Of a stretch of DNA of 64,000 nucleotides, positions 3,766 through 35,826 are shown piece by piece (position 1 is the stretch's first letter; every line of letters starts with the position of its first letter). Where the stretch lies: positions 115 to 64,114 of IMG/VR virus record IMGVR_UViG_3300021247_000536; one strand, 5' to 3'. Under the pieces are notes generated by a model, which worked only from the letters and a program-made list of their open reading frames with translations, was not told where the DNA came from and searched no databases. The translations under genes and the position numbers were made by a program. Source of the DNA: a virus.

Positions 3766-4713
3766 TTATGCTGTCATTGTAGGAGATGCCAATCCGCTTC
3801 CGCCTAAGTCTGGAAGGTTTTGTCCTGGATTTATATTTGTTGGGTTATATATCCCTGTGCTTGATGGAAGAATTGGAGATTCTGGAGGAGTAGGTATAGG
3901 AGGTGTAATCGAAGGAGATCCTCCGCTAGAACTTCTCTTTAACATATCAGCCCAGTCCGACACACCCATTCCTCTTGCTGCTGCATTTGAAATGTTAGCA
4001 TAAGAATCTTGAGCTCCCTGAGCCCACTCTGCACGCTTCTGTAAACTTTTAGACAACGCTATTTCCATACGTCTCTGTGCAATCTTGTTTGTAAGATCGG
4101 ACGTAAAGGTATTGTAAAATTTCTGTTGTTCGTCAGCCCGAGCAAGAACTTGATTCATTGATCTTCCGACATTTGCTTGGCTACCTAATAGAGCCTGCAT
4201 TGTTCCGGCAACATCTCCTCCACCTGCCTGCACAATAGCTTGATTTGTTCCAGCTGCAGCCTGCTTAAGGTATCCCATGTCAGCTGCAAATTCAGATCCA
4301 GTATTCAGCGCCCGTCGCTTCTGGTTCATCTCCGCAAGAAATGCAAGCTGAGTAGGATCTGACGCGCCAGGCATGAGAGCCTCTGCCTGTTTCTTAGCTC
4401 TTCTTGCTTTTAATGATTGTAGAAATCCAAATGCAGTTCTTTCAATAGCACCTAGACCTTTATTATTTAAGGCGCCCGTTAACTTACCAATGATATCACT
4501 ATTACCTCCAGTAGCGCCACCGCCTCCTGGCTTCGATAAAAGCTTGCTCAATATCTGGCTTCCTCCGGCTGCGCCTGCTCCGCCTGCGGCTGTTCCTGCT
4601 GCCGCTCCTGCACCTGCAGCTATGCCACCTGCTGCCGCTGCACCACCTGCTGCTGTTCCTGCCGCTGCACCTGCTCCTGCAGCTATCCCTGCTCCTGATG
4701 CTATAAATGTCAT
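3766..4713 (-). CDS. Putative internal virion (ejection/pilot) protein with Gly/Ala-rich repeat
   Basis: Duplicated AGIAAGAGAAAGTAAGG N-terminus, helical AQ-rich core and Pro-rich tail; position typical of podovirus ejection genes. Confidence 0.65.
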   Translation of the reverse strand: MTFIASGAGIAAGAGAAAGTAAGGAAAAGGIAAGAGAAAGTAAGGAGAAGGSQILSKLLSKPGGGGATGGNSDIIGKLTGALNNKGLGAIERTAFGFLQSLKARRAKKQAEALMPGASDPTQLAFLAEMNQKRRALNTGSEFAADMGYLKQAAAGTNQAIVQAGGGDVAGTMQALLGSQANVGRSMNQVLARADEQQKFYNTFTSDLTNKIAQRRMEIALSKSLQKRAEWAQGAQDSYANISNAAARGMGVSDWADMLKRSSSGGSPSITPPIPTPPESPILPSSTGIYNPTNINPGQNLPDLGGSGLASPTMTA

Positions 4714-5234: not shown

Positions 5235-8200
5235 TTACTTAAGAACCTTAGACTGCATGCCTGCTGTGTGCAGGATAAATTTCGATGCTAAGTTATGAAT
5301 AACTTTGCACTGAAGCAAACGATCTTGTATTCTGTCGTAAGGAGGATCTGCTTTTCTAGGGATGAACTGTTCCCATCCATCGTAGCGAAGTAGGTAGTTA
5401 GGACCCTGGATAGCCTGAGACATTGTAGCAAGGACATTGCCGGCGGTGTCTATAAACTCAATAGATGTAGGCTTGTCTGATCGGTCAGAGTTTATCCTTA
5501 CTCGAATAAATTCCTTCTCGTCAAATGTGCTAGGAGCCGAAGCCCATGTCACCTCAAACTGAATCGGATCTCCATTAAGAGTAAAGCCATGATCAAGGTC
5601 ATACGTTACTCCGTCTCTCGATCCTCTTGACTCATTGTTGTACGCACCCATGCGGTCGAACTTCATGTCATTCCATCCGTTCCATGATCCGTTACGAGGA
5701 GAGTAGGAGAAACATATTGACAGCGGAGGTTTACCTGAGTCATTGCCCGGGTCGTCTATGTGCAACCAATACTCTTGGTTTCTAGGATCATAATGACCCA
5801 CAACCTTTGTCGCAAGACCATTCTGTATTCTGTCAAGCACAGGTCTTATCCTTGAGTAGTAGTTAGCTCGTCCAATATTCTTAGGAGCTTGAGGTCCAGA
5901 TAACATGAACACTGAATCTTTGTTAGCAAAGAATAGCGCTGGCATAAGTATCTGTGCTCCGTTTGCATCCTGGCCCATAGGCACAGTGAACTCAGCGGCA
6001 GATCTCCACATCTCATCCTTCATGCCTATACGTCTATCGATCCAATATTCAGCTCCAATAAATGCTGTGTTGGCCATGTACGCAATCTCTCCACCGTTAA
6101 GATCGGATAGAATGGATTTGCCTGTAAGCAATAGACAGATTCCGGAATCAGTTATAGCATAAAGGTTCTCGCCCTTCTCATTCATTTCGCTGTATGCGTA
6201 CTTGATCTCTCCGTTTTTATCATCGATATCAAATGCGTTGTTAGCAGGAAACGTTCTTAATGATGGAGCATCCTGAACATTTATCTGTCTAGGCAATGAG
6301 TGCATCTCTCGTGTAGGGAAATGCGTCTGCTCTACAAAGCCGAACTCTGGCTTAGAGAATACATTCTTAGGTTTCTCATTCGAATACTCAGGGTTCACCT
6401 GCTGCAAGAATCTGAATCCGCCCCACTTCCACTGTTCCTTCTCCTGCTCTCCGTAATCAACAACATATTGTTTATAAATATTTTGCTCAGCAATTGTCTT
6501 GCTATCATCCCATCTATTAGGACGCATCACGTAGTTTACTGAAGGGAAGTATTGAAGTGGATATTCTAGGTTATATCCATAGACCGTGTTGATGCGACTT
6601 TCTACAGTGAACATCATGCATAGTTGACGAAGATACCCGAGGTTTAGCCAGTCTTGATCTTGAATGTGATTGACGCCTGTGGTTCTAGCTACTACATAGT
6701 GTCTAGGATTTAGCTGCATCTCTGCATATGGGAAACCTATACCAAATGCAAATTGAGTTGACGCTGCATCATCTTCAGCAGATGACTCTCTATCAATAGG
6801 AGCGAATATAGACTCTCCGATTGTAGCATCTCCACCCCAGAATCTTATTGGAGCAGTGTTGTCATATTTTACAATGATGAATGCCTTGTCTACTGGATAG
6901 AAGTTTGACTGATCAAACACAATAGTAAACTCTCTGTTGTTTGAGTTTGTATGAGTGTATGTTCCAGTGGCTCCGTTGGTATAAGCTCCGTTAGCGGCAA
7001 TGTAGTTTGCTATGGCAAGTCTTTGAACGTTTGTATAGAAGGTTACGTTCATCCACTTCTCTTCTGTTCCGTCAGTCTTCCTGATATATATGAATCGATC
7101 AGTGGTTGCAGTAGGGTGAGTGGACGTCAATGCCGGGATGCAATCTTCCCATCTCTCATCAACAAGAACATATGACTGACCAGAAAGTCCAGTACCTCTT
7201 CCGATAATACTTTCTATCTTCTGGTAGTGCACAGGTTTATATTGCTGAAGATTCACATCTCCAACCTCCGCAGCTGTTCTGATTATGTTAACGACATAGA
7301 TCGGCTCTGTCCAATCCTTCATCCCATCATCTGCAAACGCTCTGTCTGTAACTCCGCCAATGTTTCCTCTTCCGTACAACGATTGGTTTATGCTAAGCTC
7401 AAGGTACGTTCCTCGGCCCTCTGTTTTTCTGGCAAGACTTCTTATGGTAAACTCGTTGTTACCTCTGTCTCCTCCAGCAAATAATCCAGGTTGCTGATTG
7501 ATGTTGCGCCACTTTCCATAGCCAACATAGTTGTACCCATCTCCACCAGAAAATCCCATAGAAGCATCTTCTAATGGATTTATTTCTGCAGCCAATCCGA
7601 CTTTATCTTTTAGCATCCTCGCGTAAGATATCATATCAATGCAACGATCTCTCACGTTAAGATCAGCTGTAGCTTCAAAGCTATATACCTCAGAAAAGAA
7701 ACCAAGAGGAGAAACAAACTGCACAGCGTAGTTTTGTGGATTAGCTATGATATCATTGACAGTGTCAGGAGACACAATTCCGTTCTCAATGTCAGGAGAA
7801 AATAGCCAAATCTTTCCTGTATCTTTTGTGGTAAGAGATTGATTAGATGCAAAATTATATACCGCTGGGCTCATTGAATAACATCCTATGCCCTGAGCAA
7901 TCACACGTCCAGCAGCGTCTGTTCTAGCTATGCTAAAAGATTTCATCCACGCTGGGAAATTAGATATCCCGGCAAGAAGATTTCCTTGAGAATAATAGTT
8001 AGGTCCAAATCCTTTAGGACTGTAATCTACCTTATCGGTAGAATGGTTGTTTGTTGGAGAGACCCTGGTTGTAGGAATAAAGTTATGTCCAGACGTGTCA
8101 GGATCTTGTTGACTTGTAGGTGTGTATGGATGATAGTATGGAAATACCTGATCAAGAGCATCAACCCTAGCCCCATGATTCTCTATTTCTCCACTTGATT

Positions 8201-9713
8201 CGTTAGGGGTTACAGCGTCATTGACGGTAAGTTGAAATTTCCACCCGTCTACCAGCAAACCGCCAGCCTGATAAATATTTTTGAATGACGTTAGGTCAGT
8301 CTTTGATTCCGCATCTGTAAGGTCAAATACTTCGTGAGTATTGCCAATGGTGTTGTCAACTCGGGTTGCCTTGACAGTTCCTCCATACGAATACAGATCG
8401 GTTGTGGCCGATGTTGCATCTCGTCTATTTGGCATAAGGACATTGCCGCTGTTGTCAATCTTCTGCGCGAATCCTCTCCCCATGACTCCATCATATCCTT
8501 GTATTGCAAATCCAAATCTTTCACCGTGGTGATAGTGCTTTCTATTTACAAAGTTCCAAACATCTGTGTATCCAGCCTTACCCATATTTTCAATGACTGG
8601 GTGCATCTCCTTGCCGTCAATCTTGCTGAATATAAGCTCCGACTCCTTAGAGGCGAGACGAACATTCATTAGAGATAGTCGCTTGTTTATGAAGCGCATT
8701 GTCTTGGCTCCATCTACATAAGCGAGCTGTTGATTTTCTGTTGCGTCAGAAACAGAAATAGGAGGATCAATGTTTGAATCTGATGGATCTACAAAGTCAC
8801 GCACAGACACCTCGCCTCTTGCGATATCAATCTTTGATATCACTTCAGATGTAGGAGTAAATCCTAGGCCAGCGCCTTGGTTATAAGCCGTGCGCTTGAT
8901 CTCGATGTAATCGTAGTTATGCAGGTTGGTTACGCGGAATCTTATTGCAATACCAAATCCTGTAGAGAACTCAGGGTTTGGTCCGCCTCCAAATGTTTTT
9001 GATCCAGGATACTGGCTTGACTCGGATGAGTTTGTCTGAACCACTGGAATAAGAGGCGTTGACACCGACCAGTTTGTGCGATCCCCAGCAGATGTAACGT
9101 ATCTAAATGAGTAGTCATAAATACCTACAGGCAATCCACCTCCGCCACCAACAGGTACAAGCTCCACAAATACAGGAGAGTCATTCGAAGTTGCAAGGTT
9201 TACTGAGTAATCGTCAGGGTTGAATGCTGCAAAATATTTTGTAGGATCAAGCGTAAGCGAGTCCACCATATCTTGAACATTCAGTATCAGCGGAGTAAAC
9301 GACAATGCCGTGAGTCCTAGCAATCCGCCAAGACAGTCTTCGTCAACATCAAACTGAGGAGGATCGGATACAGTTACCGGAAACAGAGAGCTCTGAAGAC
9401 AGATAACTCCATCGATCCTAATCAACGGATCTAGTGCAGTTGTTGCGTCAGCCCACACCTCCACATAGTGTTCGTTCACTTGTGTTGATACTAGGCAAAC
9501 GTAATCCGTAGACGGGAGGTTGTCTGGGTATACAAGCTCTTCTCCGCCAATTTTTTGAATAGCACCATCAGCGCCACCGACAGAATTTACTCGAGCATTT
9601 CGAGCATCAACATATTTGCCATTGTTCTGAGCGCCAAGCAACTCTTTGCTTGTGTCGCTATCTGCTCCGGCAGTAAATGTTCGAACGTCATATGGCTGGT
9701 GCTCTTGCTTCAT
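5235..9713 (-). CDS. Large tail protein (tail stabilisation/nozzle-like)
   Basis: 1492 aa, beta-rich; N-terminus (TFTAGADSD...YVDARNARV) and position resemble P22 gp10/crAss muzzle-type proteins. Confidence 0.6.
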   Translation of the reverse strand: MKQEHQPYDVRTFTAGADSDTSKELLGAQNNGKYVDARNARVNSVGGADGAIQKIGGEELVYPDNLPSTDYVCLVSTQVNEHYVEVWADATTALDPLIRIDGVICLQSSLFPVTVSDPPQFDVDEDCLGGLLGLTALSFTPLILNVQDMVDSLTLDPTKYFAAFNPDDYSVNLATSNDSPVFVELVPVGGGGGLPVGIYDYSFRYVTSAGDRTNWSVSTPLIPVVQTNSSESSQYPGSKTFGGGPNPEFSTGFGIAIRFRVTNLHNYDYIEIKRTAYNQGAGLGFTPTSEVISKIDIARGEVSVRDFVDPSDSNIDPPISVSDATENQQLAYVDGAKTMRFINKRLSLMNVRLASKESELIFSKIDGKEMHPVIENMGKAGYTDVWNFVNRKHYHHGERFGFAIQGYDGVMGRGFAQKIDNSGNVLMPNRRDATSATTDLYSYGGTVKATRVDNTIGNTHEVFDLTDAESKTDLTSFKNIYQAGGLLVDGWKFQLTVNDAVTPNESSGEIENHGARVDALDQVFPYYHPYTPTSQQDPDTSGHNFIPTTRVSPTNNHSTDKVDYSPKGFGPNYYSQGNLLAGISNFPAWMKSFSIARTDAAGRVIAQGIGCYSMSPAVYNFASNQSLTTKDTGKIWLFSPDIENGIVSPDTVNDIIANPQNYAVQFVSPLGFFSEVYSFEATADLNVRDRCIDMISYARMLKDKVGLAAEINPLEDASMGFSGGDGYNYVGYGKWRNINQQPGLFAGGDRGNNEFTIRSLARKTEGRGTYLELSINQSLYGRGNIGGVTDRAFADDGMKDWTEPIYVVNIIRTAAEVGDVNLQQYKPVHYQKIESIIGRGTGLSGQSYVLVDERWEDCIPALTSTHPTATTDRFIYIRKTDGTEEKWMNVTFYTNVQRLAIANYIAANGAYTNGATGTYTHTNSNNREFTIVFDQSNFYPVDKAFIIVKYDNTAPIRFWGGDATIGESIFAPIDRESSAEDDAASTQFAFGIGFPYAEMQLNPRHYVVARTTGVNHIQDQDWLNLGYLRQLCMMFTVESRINTVYGYNLEYPLQYFPSVNYVMRPNRWDDSKTIAEQNIYKQYVVDYGEQEKEQWKWGGFRFLQQVNPEYSNEKPKNVFSKPEFGFVEQTHFPTREMHSLPRQINVQDAPSLRTFPANNAFDIDDKNGEIKYAYSEMNEKGENLYAITDSGICLLLTGKSILSDLNGGEIAYMANTAFIGAEYWIDRRIGMKDEMWRSAAEFTVPMGQDANGAQILMPALFFANKDSVFMLSGPQAPKNIGRANYYSRIRPVLDRIQNGLATKVVGHYDPRNQEYWLHIDDPGNDSGKPPLSICFSYSPRNGSWNGWNDMKFDRMGAYNNESRGSRDGVTYDLDHGFTLNGDPIQFEVTWASAPSTFDEKEFIRVRINSDRSDKPTSIEFIDTAGNVLATMSQAIQGPNYLLRYDGWEQFIPRKADPPYDRIQDRLLQCKVIHNLASKFILHTAGMQSKVLK

Positions 9714-30029: not shown

Positions 30030-31514
30030 ATGTCAGCACTAATCACCCTGTTGCAGGGTCCTGGGTATATGTCCATAGGATATACATCCAACGGTTCCAC
30101 GAACAGCATGTCCATCCTTAAGGAGAACTTCACGTTCAACTACAACAGCTCAACGGCTTCATTCTCAATATATGATGAATCGAAGAGGGCTCTTGAGTTT
30201 ACTCTTGCCGACCTTGTCAGCCCTATTGTTGCTTCTGACGATCTTCTTATTGCCTGGCTTCAGTCTTTTATGGCTGACGCTTCCGGGACATCTACCTCTG
30301 CAGCTATGCTATACGATGCCTTTGGTCGTCAGCGTGTTTCTGAGCCGTATACTCTTGGTGACTACAAGCATCTGTACGGGTTGGATACTAACTTCCTGGA
30401 TGTGACAGCCAACGGCGGCAGTGTAACCTTTCAGCCTAACAAGGCCTGCGCTCGCCTTTCTGTAACAACAGCTTCAGGCTCCTCTGCAATTCACCAGACC
30501 AAGTTCTATCACCAGTACATGCCTGGTAAGAGCCAGCTTATATTCAGCACCTTCAACCTATACAATGCAGTTCCTAACGTAACAAAGAGAACGGGGTACT
30601 TCGACGCCTACAACGGTATCTTCTTTGAGCAGGACGGAACAGGAAAGCTTAAGTTCGTCATCAGGACAGATGTGAGTGGAACACCACTGGATTCAGAGTC
30701 CGTATCTCAGACCTCATGGAACGTAGATCCTTGTGACGGCTCCGGCCCTTCTGGCTTTCAGATTCAGATAGACCAGACACAGATCATGTTCATCGAGATG
30801 CAGTGGCTGGGCGTTGGTCGTGTACGTGTAGGATTTGTCCATGACGGTAACTTCGTGGTGGCTCACGAGTTCTTCCATGACAACCAGCTTCCTACTGTAT
30901 ATATGAGTAACCCTAACCTTCCTGTACGTTGCGAGATCGTGGCTGACGGTGTTACAGATGGGGCATACTTCGACCAGATCTGTTCAACTGTCCTTAGCGA
31001 AGGCGGCTATGTAGAGTCAGGCCAAGACTGGTCAGCATCTAATGGGTCAACAGTAAGATCCATAGCAGCCGGAGCCACCGTACCTCTGTTCGCCATCCGA
31101 CTTACCGGCACCTTCAACACATACCTCAACCGTATGATCGTGAGACTGCAGCAGTTCAGCGCCTTCTCGACAAAGGAGCCACTGAGCTTCAGCGTGGTAA
31201 AGCTCCCGGGCATCGCTCAGCTCACCACAGCATCGGCATGGGTAGACGTAAGCTCAGGCAAATCAGGAGTACAGTACAACACCGGAGCTACGGCCTACAC
31301 AGATGGAGAGGTGATATCCACAGGATACGTAGGAGCCTCATCATCAGGCAAGGAGTCAATAACATCAAACTCCAACCCGTCCACTGCCAAGAAGAACTAT
31401 ATCGTCCAGAACTATGCAAGCACAGACTCTGAGATATATGTCATCGTGGCAACCAACATAGGCACCACCACGACCACAGCAGGCGCTGCCATGCAGTGGA
31501 GGGAGATATACTAA
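30030..31514 (+). CDS. Putative virion structural protein (beta-rich)
   Basis: DAFGRQRVSEPYTLGDYKH...WLGVGRVRVGF...LPVRCEI family common in aquatic phages. Confidence 0.65.
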   Translation: MSALITLLQGPGYMSIGYTSNGSTNSMSILKENFTFNYNSSTASFSIYDESKRALEFTLADLVSPIVASDDLLIAWLQSFMADASGTSTSAAMLYDAFGRQRVSEPYTLGDYKHLYGLDTNFLDVTANGGSVTFQPNKACARLSVTTASGSSAIHQTKFYHQYMPGKSQLIFSTFNLYNAVPNVTKRTGYFDAYNGIFFEQDGTGKLKFVIRTDVSGTPLDSESVSQTSWNVDPCDGSGPSGFQIQIDQTQIMFIEMQWLGVGRVRVGFVHDGNFVVAHEFFHDNQLPTVYMSNPNLPVRCEIVADGVTDGAYFDQICSTVLSEGGYVESGQDWSASNGSTVRSIAAGATVPLFAIRLTGTFNTYLNRMIVRLQQFSAFSTKEPLSFSVVKLPGIAQLTTASAWVDVSSGKSGVQYNTGATAYTDGEVISTGYVGASSSGKESITSNSNPSTAKKNYIVQNYASTDSEIYVIVATNIGTTTTTAGAAMQWREIY

Positions 31515-32800
31515 AACCTCAGTCCCCCAGGATCCGGATCACCTAGGCAAACAGGTGGGCCGTTTCTTTTTATAGGATAGGGCAGACTCCCGCGGGAGTG
31601 TAACCCCATGAAGAAACAACCCCATATGTAAAAACCATACAGGTACCAGTACCACAAAACCCCTCCCCCCACCAAATTAACCGACAATGCCAGGAAGGTG
31701 ACAACATCCATAGGGCCCAGTATCTTTTAATTATATCAATATACGCAAAGAAAAAAGTCTCAAGCCCGTATCATATCGTATCATGCCGCATCAAAACACC
31801 AGATCCTTTGCATCAATTGATAATATTATATGTAGATACATGGAAACAAAAAATACAAAAAACGTTTCCATCGTTTCCATAACCCCAAAAACAAACACCG
31901 GTATAGCTACACGTCTGCAGCCAGGGACCGGTGGGTTCGCTATAGCTTATACCGTTCCGAGGGAAACTGACTTCGCTTGTGCGTGAAATGACCTCCACTA
32001 GTGAGCTGGTCTTGCGGGAAGCTTCAGAGGTACTGTTAGATACAAAGGTACAATGCCGACAGGAGATAGGCAAATGAGGGGTATGGGGATTATATGTGTG
32101 GGGCGGGGAGTGTATTAACGTATTGGGCCACACCCCCTAGCGAACCCGAAACGCGCATATGCACCCGAGGGCACGCGCGGTAAGGAATCCCTTATTCGGC
32201 TCAGCGCATGCAGGTAGGGTAGGGGAGGGCATACGCGCAGGTACGCATACGCACACACGCGTTTTGCTTCGCGCATACGCACGCAGGCAATGGATCGCGA
32301 GCAACAGCACAGGAAATCTGCACAGGAAATTTCACATGATCCGAATGCTATTTAACATAATGTAATTTATACAGCGCATCCATCGCGACAGGAATATGCA
32401 CAGGCAAGCGCATGACAGGACGCAGGAAAACACGCTGCAAACATCTGTAGGAATACGCGCACACACGTACACGCACGCACGCGGGTATGCATATTCGCGC
32501 GGGTGATCAGGCATGCGGGATTCTATACAGGGCAAAGTCGGTCCGGAAACGTTTTACACGAAAAACGTTTCCATAGTTTCCACTGTATAGGTAAAAATTG
32601 AACATTCCCCACCCCTCCTAACTCATTCACAATCAACACATTGCACACTCATATCGCTGTAACACATTGACACGCAACAAGTTATAAAAATCGTATTTTT
32701 TTGTATAAATTATTCGTCCTGATTTTCAGCACATTACGTCATTTCGACAACCAAAATTACGGATTTTTGGTTTCGACACTTGCAAATTCAAAACATATGC
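31515..32800. other. Non-coding putative genome terminus/origin region
   Basis: About 1.3 kb without credible ORFs; G/C tracts, repeated GTTTCCATNGTTTCC, purine-pyrimidine alternation; lies just before the early genes. Confidence 0.6.
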
Positions 32801-32812
32801 CTTTACTTTGTC
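32780..32812 (+). promoter_or_regulatory. Possible early promoter
   Basis: TTG followed after ~20 nt by TTACTTTG, an imperfect -7 element. Confidence 0.4.
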
Positions 32813-32816
32813 CCCG

Positions 32817-33216
32817 ACAACGGTCAGAAACCCGATTTCCCCTGAGTCACTCGTTCTTTCACACGTCGCGTAAAATGTTGCCCTGTACGGGTAGCCCCTT
32901 GGTTAAGCACATCTGCAATAGTGGTGTTAAACGATCAAGCGTGATACGGTTCTTTGACGTAATGAAGTTGCACAACTACACAGGCGGATATGCTGTTATC
33001 TGTTCTGAGAGTCGCGAATATGGGTTAGTAGCCCGCTCAACGGTCATATGTAAATTGCCTTACTGGCAGACCACAGAGTAGAAGCGATACGGATACGGGC
33101 AGTACCTGTGTAGTCAATTAGCGGATATCTTATCCGTGAAGTGGTGTGGCTGAAGGTTATGGATAAGTAACCTAGTCTCTATCGTGATGTTAAAGCATAG
33201 AGGCTGAAGTATTCTT
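32817..33216 (+). ncRNA. Candidate ~400-nt multi-stem structured RNA
   Basis: Long-range ACTACACAGG/CCTGTGTAGT helix enclosing three hairpins, plus three further hairpins; TGAAG linkers; no credible ORF. Confidence 0.6.
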
Positions 33217-33289
33217 TCCCTTGTTAATTCAGAATTGACCTTCTGCTACATTGCCGAAGGTGTGACTCGATTGTCACACAAGGGAACTA
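33217..33289 (+). ncRNA. tRNA-like cloverleaf element D
   Basis: TCCCTTG/CAAGGGA acceptor, TGTGA/TCACA T-stem, two inner arms, then A-CTA. Confidence 0.7.
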
Positions 33290-33306
33290 ACCAATCAACA
33301 ATCAAC

Positions 33307-33462
33307 ATGAACACGAACACAATTTACGTAACAGTGACCATCGACAACGTCACCTATGGAGCAAACGTTAACACAGTGACAGGTCACGTCGACTCTGCTG
33401 CTCCTGACAGTATCCACGATCTTCTCAGAGAGACAGCGCAAAGGTTAACTGAAGAGGCTTAA
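33307..33462 (+). CDS. Small early protein
   Basis: MNTNTIYV..., ATG 33307 after an A/C-rich leader. Confidence 0.6.
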   Translation: MNTNTIYVTVTIDNVTYGANVNTVTGHVDSAAPDSIHDLLRETAQRLTEEA

Positions 33463-33516: not shown

Positions 33517-33768
33517 ATGAGACTCAATTACAGTAAATTAACGGCAGCCGACCCTACAGTGTACCTAACGTTCACTAACTCGCTAGGTCAGGAAATTAAA
33601 CTGGTGGAGCATCCATCGCGAGGTGACGAGTATCCTGTTATCGCAGTATCTGACTATCATCAACTTGCGTTCGCAACAGACTTTTACGAGACTGGCGATA
33701 TCAACGAGGTAGGCGGAGAATATGAGGTTGGGTTCATAGACGGTGAACTTTTTCACGGGCTGAACTAA
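33517..33768 (+). CDS. Early hypothetical protein
   Basis: 83 aa acidic ORF. Confidence 0.7.
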   Translation: MRLNYSKLTAADPTVYLTFTNSLGQEIKLVEHPSRGDEYPVIAVSDYHQLAFATDFYETGDINEVGGEYEVGFIDGELFHGLN

Positions 33769-33775
33769 CACACCC

Positions 33776-33822
33776 TCCCATGCAGAGAATGGTCACTCGG
33801 ATCGATGCCGAGCATGGGAACT
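33776..33822 (+). ncRNA. Anticodon-less mini-tRNA element A
   Basis: TCCCATG-CAGAGAATGGTCA-CTCGG-ATCGATG-CCGAG-CATGGGA-A-CTA. Confidence 0.8.
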
Positions 33823-33837
33823 AACCAATCTAAAATC

Positions 33838-35779: not shown

Positions 35780-35826
35780 TCCCGTGCAGAGAATGGCATG
35801 CAGATCGATACTGCACACGGGAGCTA
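35780..35826 (+). ncRNA. Anticodon-less mini-tRNA element B
   Basis: TCCCGTG-CAGAGAATGGCA-TGCAG-ATCGATA-CTGCA-CACGGGA-G-CTA. Confidence 0.8.

Follow-up and report, generated by a model that had tools for sequence, protein, structure and literature searches.

What kind of element stands at the head of the early region of this phage, in some 400 nucleotides where no gene is apparent? The window (i.e., the whole 64,000-nt stretch of DNA analysed here) comprises bases 115-64114 of a 64,634-bp IMG/VR record that is classed as linear and estimated to be 92% complete. It encodes the proteins expected of a tailed phage (portal, large terminase, virion proteins, helicase, primase-helicase, sliding clamp and exonuclease), and a 1492-aa protein (5235-9713, minus strand) gave a weak, above-threshold Pfam match to the crAss-virus muzzle protein (PF25731, E = 2.7e-11), which hints at a distant link to crAss-like podoviruses. 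The region of interest lies in a 1.8-kb gene-free stretch between the gene for a 494-aa virion structural protein (30030-31514, phrog_1645) and a block of small ORFs that starts at 33307 and forms a long plus-strand run leading into the replication genes. Relatives of the virion protein (43-71% identity) occur in 80 viral contigs of 5-200 kb, and its gene appears to be a widely exchanged module, with neighbourhoods that differ among the closest loci checked. Within the gene-free stretch, the sole conserved gene call is a 66-aa ORF (31511-31711, minus strand) that is found in the same place in several relatives (L085, L086 and L101). The ~1.1 kb at 31712-32800 contains short GC-rich repeats of the ACGC type (32150-32510), a perfect 11-bp palindrome (GGAAACGTTTT/AAAACGTTTCC, 32545-32572) whose surroundings have a 79% direct copy at 31842-31879, and an AT-rich run (32680-32715); it could be an origin, terminus or operator region.

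The signals of the window point to a particular host phylum. The word TAnnTTTG is enriched (72 occurrences vs 40.5 ± 6.7) and precedes several operons, and Shine-Dalgarno-like words are found upstream of only 6% of ORFs vs a 15% background, with ORF-upstream regions that are 43% A. Because this -7 box and a scarcity of Shine-Dalgarno words have both been described for the Bacteroidota (PMC6847099), the host is probably a member of that phylum. A giant virion protein was also considered as a candidate RNA polymerase and rejected, as it matches no such family, which makes a host promoter the simplest reading for the early region.

An initial annotation, made from the sequence alone, had proposed that 32817-33216 is a multi-stem RNA. 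All of the stems it named are present, including a perfect 10-bp helix (32975-32984/33105-33114). However, on a single sequence these stems are no more than chance: the 400-nt stretch folds at -116.6 kcal/mol vs -112.1 ± 5.7 in dinucleotide shuffles (z = -0.79), and perfect 10-bp inverted repeats within 200 nt are equally common in shuffles (19 in the window vs 16 ± 5). The minus-strand fold of the same stretch gave z = 0.0.

Relatives were supplied by the contigs of a 90%-identity cluster of 12 variants of an 83-aa early protein (33517-33768), together with a scan for exact words of the leader that returned three JGI contigs and none in IMG/VR. The RNA is present in five further lineages (L085/L086; L098/L099/L108; L100/L106; L111; and L109/L110), and the comparative set consists of six closely related lineages including the window, at 67-100% identity. 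In the most distant of them (L109), identity to the window is 85% in domain 1, 87% in the core, 92% in the tRNA-shaped element D that follows the RNA and 83% in the first two ORFs; the RNA region is thus conserved as much as, or more than, the neighbouring genes. Early-gene content varies among close relatives in several other places, and L085 (3556-3780) and L086 (2514-2738) have an extra 74-aa ORF in a 224-nt insertion between element D and the first ORF that the window does not have.

We predicted the fold from the window sequence alone and then scored the substitutions of the relatives on the predicted pairs, with 300 column shuffles as the reference. This revealed that 35 of 44 varying pairs (80%) are canonical in every relative, compared to 31% ± 6% in shuffles, none of which (0/300) reached the observed value. 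Pairs in which both bases had changed numbered nine vs 2.4 on average in shuffles, where the number never exceeded 8 (0/300). On the minus strand, only 13 of 40 varying pairs survived (33%), which is the shuffle level. The ~14 covarying pairs are spread over seven helices and represent non-independent events, because several lineages share ancestry. Alifold z-scores of the domains ranged from -4.2 to -6.1 on the plus strand and from -1.9 to -3.1 on the minus strand, vs +0.6 for a coding control. It is the preservation of pairing in relatives that lifts the observation above chance, and these comparative data confirm, by alignment, a conserved and folded non-coding plus-strand RNA of ~400 bases. 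The multi-stem RNA of the initial annotation is thereby borne out as a structure under selection, and the comparison demonstrates that substitutions in the six lineages, being compensatory or wobble-compatible, have preserved the predicted three-domain fold (Table 1).

Table 1 Positions of the RNA, its predicted parts and the flanking signals in the window
Feature	Position	Strand	Remarks
Candidate Bacteroidota-type promoter	32780..32810	+	From alignments; putative function
Near-invariant 5' RNA segment	32811..32862	+	90-100% identity in all relatives; retained in the core-less lineage
boxA-like word 1, GTTCTTTCA	32853..32861	+	Invariant in all lineages, including core-less L101; putative function
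Domain 1, three-way junction	32865..32945	+	Eight covarying pairs
P1 and P1a (domain 1)	32865-70/32940-45; 32877-82/32890-95	+	
P1b (domain 1)	32898-904/32933-39 plus 32909-15/32921-27	+	
boxA-like word 2, GTTCTTTGA	32949..32957	+	Linker between domain 1 and core; invariant in six lineages, flanks vary
Core domain, rod ending in a small junction	32966..33151	+	Long closing helix, including 32975-84/33105-14
P3 and P4 (core)	32991-33003/33089-33101; 33011-15/33084-88	+	P3 covaries (GC, GU, AU)
P5 and P6 (core terminal junction)	33022-26/33030-34; 33035-38/33076-79	+	
P7 (core terminal junction)	33042-45/33069-72 plus 33056-59/33065-68	+	
Optional hairpin GCGGATA/TATCCGT	33115..33136	+	Within a 28-nt insert between repeats GTGTAGT and GTGAAGT
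Hairpin P8 (AGGTTAT/GTAACCT)	33154..33173	+	Invariant loop GGATAA; one covarying pair, two one-sided compatible changes
Hairpin P9 (CTCTAT/ATAGAG region)	33174..33205	+	Final stem before element D; two covarying pairs
Element D, cloverleaf-like and tRNA-shaped, then (A/G)CTAAC	33217..33289	+	Candidate processing site; would define the RNA 3' end
First early ORF, 51 aa	33307..33462	+	50-52 aa homologues called in relatives

Most of the originally named stems are conserved. The 10-bp helix is retained in all six lineages, three of which have a 28-nt deletion that leaves it intact, as the junction rebuilds its 3' arm as CCTGTG(A/C)AGT. The hairpins GGGTT/AGCCC and GGTC-TGCC/GGCA-GACC are conserved across lineages, as are AGGTTA/TAACCT and CTCTAT/ATAGAG with compensatory changes, the last of these having a 56-nt extension in every relative. 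The stem CGGATA/TATCTG exists, but its TATCTG arm is better paired with a downstream CGGATA (33089-33101), because position 33002/33090 covaries across lineages from G-C to G-U to A-U. The hairpin GCGGATA/TATCCGT is real in the window, yet lineage-specific: the insert that holds it is present in the window, L085 and L109, and missing from three lineages (L098/99/108, L100/106 and L111). TGAAG does recur four times in the window, but only the copies at 32964 and 33137 are conserved; as 2/4 copies are window-specific, we rejected it as a junction motif. Elsewhere in the fold, two adjacent pairs of P6 (GCUC/GAGU) are swapped in L109. Alifold z-scores were -5.2 to -5.4 for domain 1 (-1.9 to -2.1 on the minus strand), -4.2 to -4.5 for the core (-1.9 to -2.3 on the minus strand) and -5.3 to -6.1 for P9, at whose tip the 56-nt extension is itself structured. 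The indels between lineages (the 28-nt hairpin, the 56-nt P9 tip and a 3-nt loop deletion in L111) are located where a structured RNA tolerates them.

The relatives also bear on where the RNA begins. The published consensus of Bacteroidota sigma-A promoters consists of a -33 element TTTG and a -7 element TAnnTTTG with G at -5 (PMC6847099). In the window, a -33 element TTG lies at 32780-32782 and a -7 box TTACTTTG at 32803-32810, the latter matching 5/6 key near-invariant positions (T-12, A-11, T-8, T-7, T-6 and G-5). Five related lineages read TATCTTTG at the -7 box and have a TTTG 21 nt 5' of it, and L100/L111 read TAGCATTG. Sequence conservation starts abruptly at this box: L109 is 67-68% identical to the window in the upstream non-coding DNA and 100% identical over the 5' segment of the RNA. 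Because conservation begins at a -7 box whose G is -5, we infer an RNA start near 32815-32817, in agreement with the 32817 given by the initial annotation, whose placement of the RNA at the head of the early region likewise holds (i.e., directly 3' of a candidate host-type promoter and heading the small-ORF block). The support for transcription consists of this promoter-like site and the conservation boundary. The predicted hairpins of the 5' segment offer no variation for a comparison of pairing, and its alifold z-score is -0.5. A leftward promoter-like pair (TTTG-N23-TAATTTTG, 32752-32786, minus strand) shares a palindromic TTGCAA with the candidate rightward early promoter, and its -33 part is unconserved in relatives.

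Two short words in the leader resemble boxA, the antitermination signal of rRNA operons. The E. coli boxA consensus is UGCUCUUUAACA. The gamma-proteobacterial consensus has been given as GYTCTTTAANA (PMC5725501), and that of B. subtilis as AUGAUCUUUGAAA, with the core UCUUUGA in common (PMC13753749). Word 1 matches GYTCTTTAANA at 10/11 positions. To obtain the boxA of the host phylum, we derived a leader motif from the 16S loci of about 80 mostly Bacteroidota genomes (L112-L191), in which (A/C)GTTC(T/A)TTGA(A/C) recurs and is probably the Bacteroidota boxA. GTTC(T/A)TTGA or GTTCTTTNA is found in 33/59 rRNA leaders, mostly 85-175 nt before 16S, and GTTCTTTGA is among the most enriched leader words, occurring as the identical 9-mer in 18/54 Bacteroidota rRNA-operon leaders. 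Word 2 therefore is identical to a leader word of the host phylum, and flanks in L109 turn it into AAGTTCTTTGAT; word 1 differs from the Bacteroidota rRNA leaders in having C in place of G, and TCTTTCA was found in 1/54 leaders. Both words occupy a leader position, ~38 and ~134 nt 3' of the inferred start, and are the only plus-strand boxA-like copies in the 2-8 kb locus of each relative. Word 2 could instead be conserved as one arm of a modelled helix whose other arm is 32823-32832, but some pairs of this helix are broken and none covaries. Rho would be expected to act on an untranslated transcript as long as 490 nt; reading these words as a putative rRNA-type antitermination signal, placed where the leader begins, is therefore sensible.

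The 3' boundary is marked by element D, which abuts the RNA at 33217 as originally described. It has a conserved acceptor-like stem (33217-24/33278-85) stacked on a T-arm-like hairpin (33262-66/33273-77), and an inner hairpin is also kept. Pairing is preserved at 8/9 varying pairs, all through plus-strand wobble-compatible changes, vs 0/9 on the minus strand. ARAGORN called no tRNA genes in the window and left element D uncalled, and the Rfam tRNA model did not match element D at E<=10. Its 3' end is ACTA or GCTA in most lineages, and GCCA/ACCA only in L100/L106 and L109/L110. RNase P is known to mature several phage RNAs (P4 CI, P1/P7 C4 and phi80 M3; PMC5499578), and cleavage by this enzyme at element D is plausible by analogy. 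The initial annotation had compared the arrangement to MALAT1/mascRNA; as element D is unrecognised as a tRNA and mostly ends in CTA rather than CCA, that analogy stays an inference. Two mini tRNA-shaped elements, A and B (33776-33823 and 35780-35826 in the window; 4260-4328 and 5557-5623 in L085), share TCCCNTGCAGAGAATGG, and each precedes (A/G)CTAAC followed by an A-rich run before an ATG. The copies in the window and in L085 match each other (80-83% identity) with their positions exchanged, which is the behaviour of a repeated family. A scan for words of the mini-tRNAs returned three contigs that otherwise have nothing in common with the RNA region.

One lineage, recovered from three samples (L101-L103), is a natural deletion variant. 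Some 300 nt of the RNA are missing from it: the sequence passes from the loop of the first domain-1 hairpin straight into the distal P9 extension, so that the core and half of P9 are lost, while the candidate promoter, element D and the first 75 nt, boxA word 1 included, are retained. An orphaned 5' arm of the first hairpin remains, and this state is therefore a deletion. Because L101-L103 do without these ~300 nt, the folded body appears to be an accessory module, like many early phage genes, that is dispensable in cis for early expression. The initial annotation had noted neither this dispensable part nor the boxA-like words. A near-full-length 62.7-kb ENA contig of a relative (L105) ends at window-equivalent 32877, 13 nt before the boundary of this deletion polymorphism; the contig end is probably an assembly break from strain variation rather than a physical genome end.

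We think it probable, with moderate confidence, that 32815-33216 forms the untranslated and structured beginning of the early-operon transcript, in which a boxA-equipped leader carries an accessory RNA that is released at element D. The segment would effectively be a non-coding RNA gene embedded in a leader. In this model, host RNA polymerase would start near 32816, and the boxA-like words would recruit NusB/S10, making the polymerase resistant to Rho across ~490 nt of untranslated folded RNA in a manner resembling rRNA operons and lambda nut. RNase P would then cut at element D, freeing the leader as a stable RNA of ~400 nt, and the early mRNA would continue downstream of element D after the cut. 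For the released RNA we favour, speculatively, a role in trans, which would most likely be to bind or decoy a host factor early in infection. A bolder version holds that the whole early operon is built like an rRNA operon (i.e., host promoter, boxA, large folded RNA and tRNA-shaped punctuation) and that the stable 400-nt RNA released by RNase P would be the earliest phage product and would target the host in trans, for example by decoying a defence nuclease or an RNA-binding factor. This would explain why some strains have lost the accessory module; we consider the combination unlikely.

The main rival is a purely cis-acting leader, which would tune mRNA stability, folding or translation of the first ORFs, or serve as an antitermination platform, with no role for a free RNA. 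There is no terminator between the RNA and the first early ORF (33307), as expected of a leader, and the boxA-like words point to a co-transcriptional role. Invariance is greatest in the 5' 50 nt, and the deletion lineage has kept these too. On the other side, tens of nucleotides would suffice for a 5' stabiliser or an antitermination site, which would not call for three covarying domains, and the loss of ~300 nt with the operon otherwise intact indicates that the folded body is unneeded in cis. The presence of a conserved tRNA-shaped element exactly at the boundary also speaks against this rival, which we regard as possible but doubtful. That the inverted repeats act as DNA, in a replication origin, packaging site or genome terminus, is highly improbable. 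The RNA does lie at the edge of the 1.8-kb gene-free stretch with its GC-rich repeats, palindromes and AT-rich run; however, DNA hairpins would be strand-symmetric, and here pairing is kept through G-U wobbles on the plus strand only (80% vs 33% on the minus strand). The contig end at window-equivalent 32877 might suggest a terminus, but strains vary at that very site, where a variable hairpin arm meets the boundary of the deletion, and an assembly break explains the contig end. Least credible of all is a non-functional spacer with chance stems or a small protein-coding gene: the single-sequence statistics would allow the former, but pair retention, alifold scores and conservation that equals or exceeds that of neighbouring genes oppose it, and the 126-aa TTG ORF that overlaps the region (32701-33081), and would suit the latter, was rejected as a gene because 1-nt indels break it in relatives and it has no PHROG match. 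No ORF shared among lineages was found over the RNA, given 28-, 56- and 3-nt and several 1-nt indels between them, and the claim that the RNA is non-coding thus stands.

To date, the RNA has been found only in a single group of phages from freshwater and sediment. The initial annotation had suggested a comparison with large RNA families (GOLLD, ROOL, OLE and 6S); membership in any Rfam 15 family, ribozymes and riboswitches included, is not supported, as no gathering-score match was found in the whole window, and at E<=10 the region 32500-33400 yielded only snoR111 and mir-722 noise. A blastn search of 50,697 phage records found no match to the region. The RNA was found in none of the 80 loci reached through the neighbouring 494-aa virion protein, whose contexts are unrelated, and IMG/VR scans with the portal protein and two early proteins returned no relatives. 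The 83-aa early protein also has remoter homologues (52-73% identity), which are located in different surroundings where the RNA is absent. When 1.03 Mb of other phage loci were searched with R1, a covariance model built on the inner core, only the window's own copy was recovered. Among 151 Bacteroidota genomes, R1 gave a single 27.6-bit match, which we rejected as a chance hit because it falls within a gene for an ABM-monooxygenase and was not found in 40 relatives of the genome concerned. In all, about 190 Bacteroidota genomes yielded no R1 homologue. Within the window and the phage, no paralogues or antisense targets were found beyond 12-nt chance matches. Small shares of the region's words are contained in 20 sequencing runs, two of them metatranscriptomes, and run X19 contains 14% of the words of 32810-33300; no inference is drawn from these runs.

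How does this locus compare to known systems? The early leader of T7 is reportedly released by RNase III at R0.3. As is proposed for the RNA described here, it is an untranslated 5' piece, several hundred nucleotides long, of an early transcript made by host polymerase, with a structured processing site before the first gene and sites of the same kind recurring between early genes. Unlike T7, where these sites are RNase III hairpins, the recurring sites here are tRNA-shaped and point to RNase P/Z, and the leader has a covariation-supported multi-domain fold; we are aware of no evidence that the T7 leader has a conserved fold. With rRNA leaders and lambda nut, the locus shares a boxA-like word soon after the promoter (here a candidate) of a long, structured, untranslated transcript with tRNA-shaped elements, and the 9-mer GTTCTTTGA is identical in Bacteroidota rRNA leaders. 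In contrast to those systems, no boxB/N-type hairpin partner and no phage antiterminator protein have been identified, and the cargo is mRNA. MALAT1/mascRNA and MEN-beta likewise place a long non-coding RNA directly 5' of a tRNA-shaped element, but they are eukaryotic nuclear RNAs with a triple-helix 3' end, whereas here the plain hairpin P9 and a 13-nt tail precede element D. P4 CI, P1/P7 C4 and phi80 M3 are phage regulatory RNAs that host RNase P cuts from an operon leader (PMC5499578), as is proposed here for a candidate site. However, they are 70-80 nt long, hairpin-like and themselves the substrate of RNase P, whereas the candidate product here is a 400-nt RNA upstream of the substrate, and they have no sequence similarity to it. 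Finally, the RNA resembles GOLLD, ROOL, 6S and OLE in being over 300 nt, multi-domain, non-coding and phage-borne, but differs from them in its operon-leader location, its lack of an Rfam match and its restriction to one phage species-group.

Few large structured non-coding RNAs are known from bacteria and phages, and new biology has followed from every class discovered. Even if the RNA described here is a leader only, it would still be a useful annotated RNA family for freshwater phage genomes. Its position makes it the first thing that host polymerase would transcribe, and the natural deletion variant offers a comparison. It also has two mechanistic handles, namely the boxA-like words (of which word 2 is identical to the rRNA-leader motif of the host phylum) and the tRNA-shaped boundary element. 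If the proposed reading is true, this would be the first case known to us of a Bacteroidota phage that uses rRNA-type antitermination signals, and the formation of a long non-coding RNA's 3' end at a tRNA-like element would have a counterpart in a bacterial virus.
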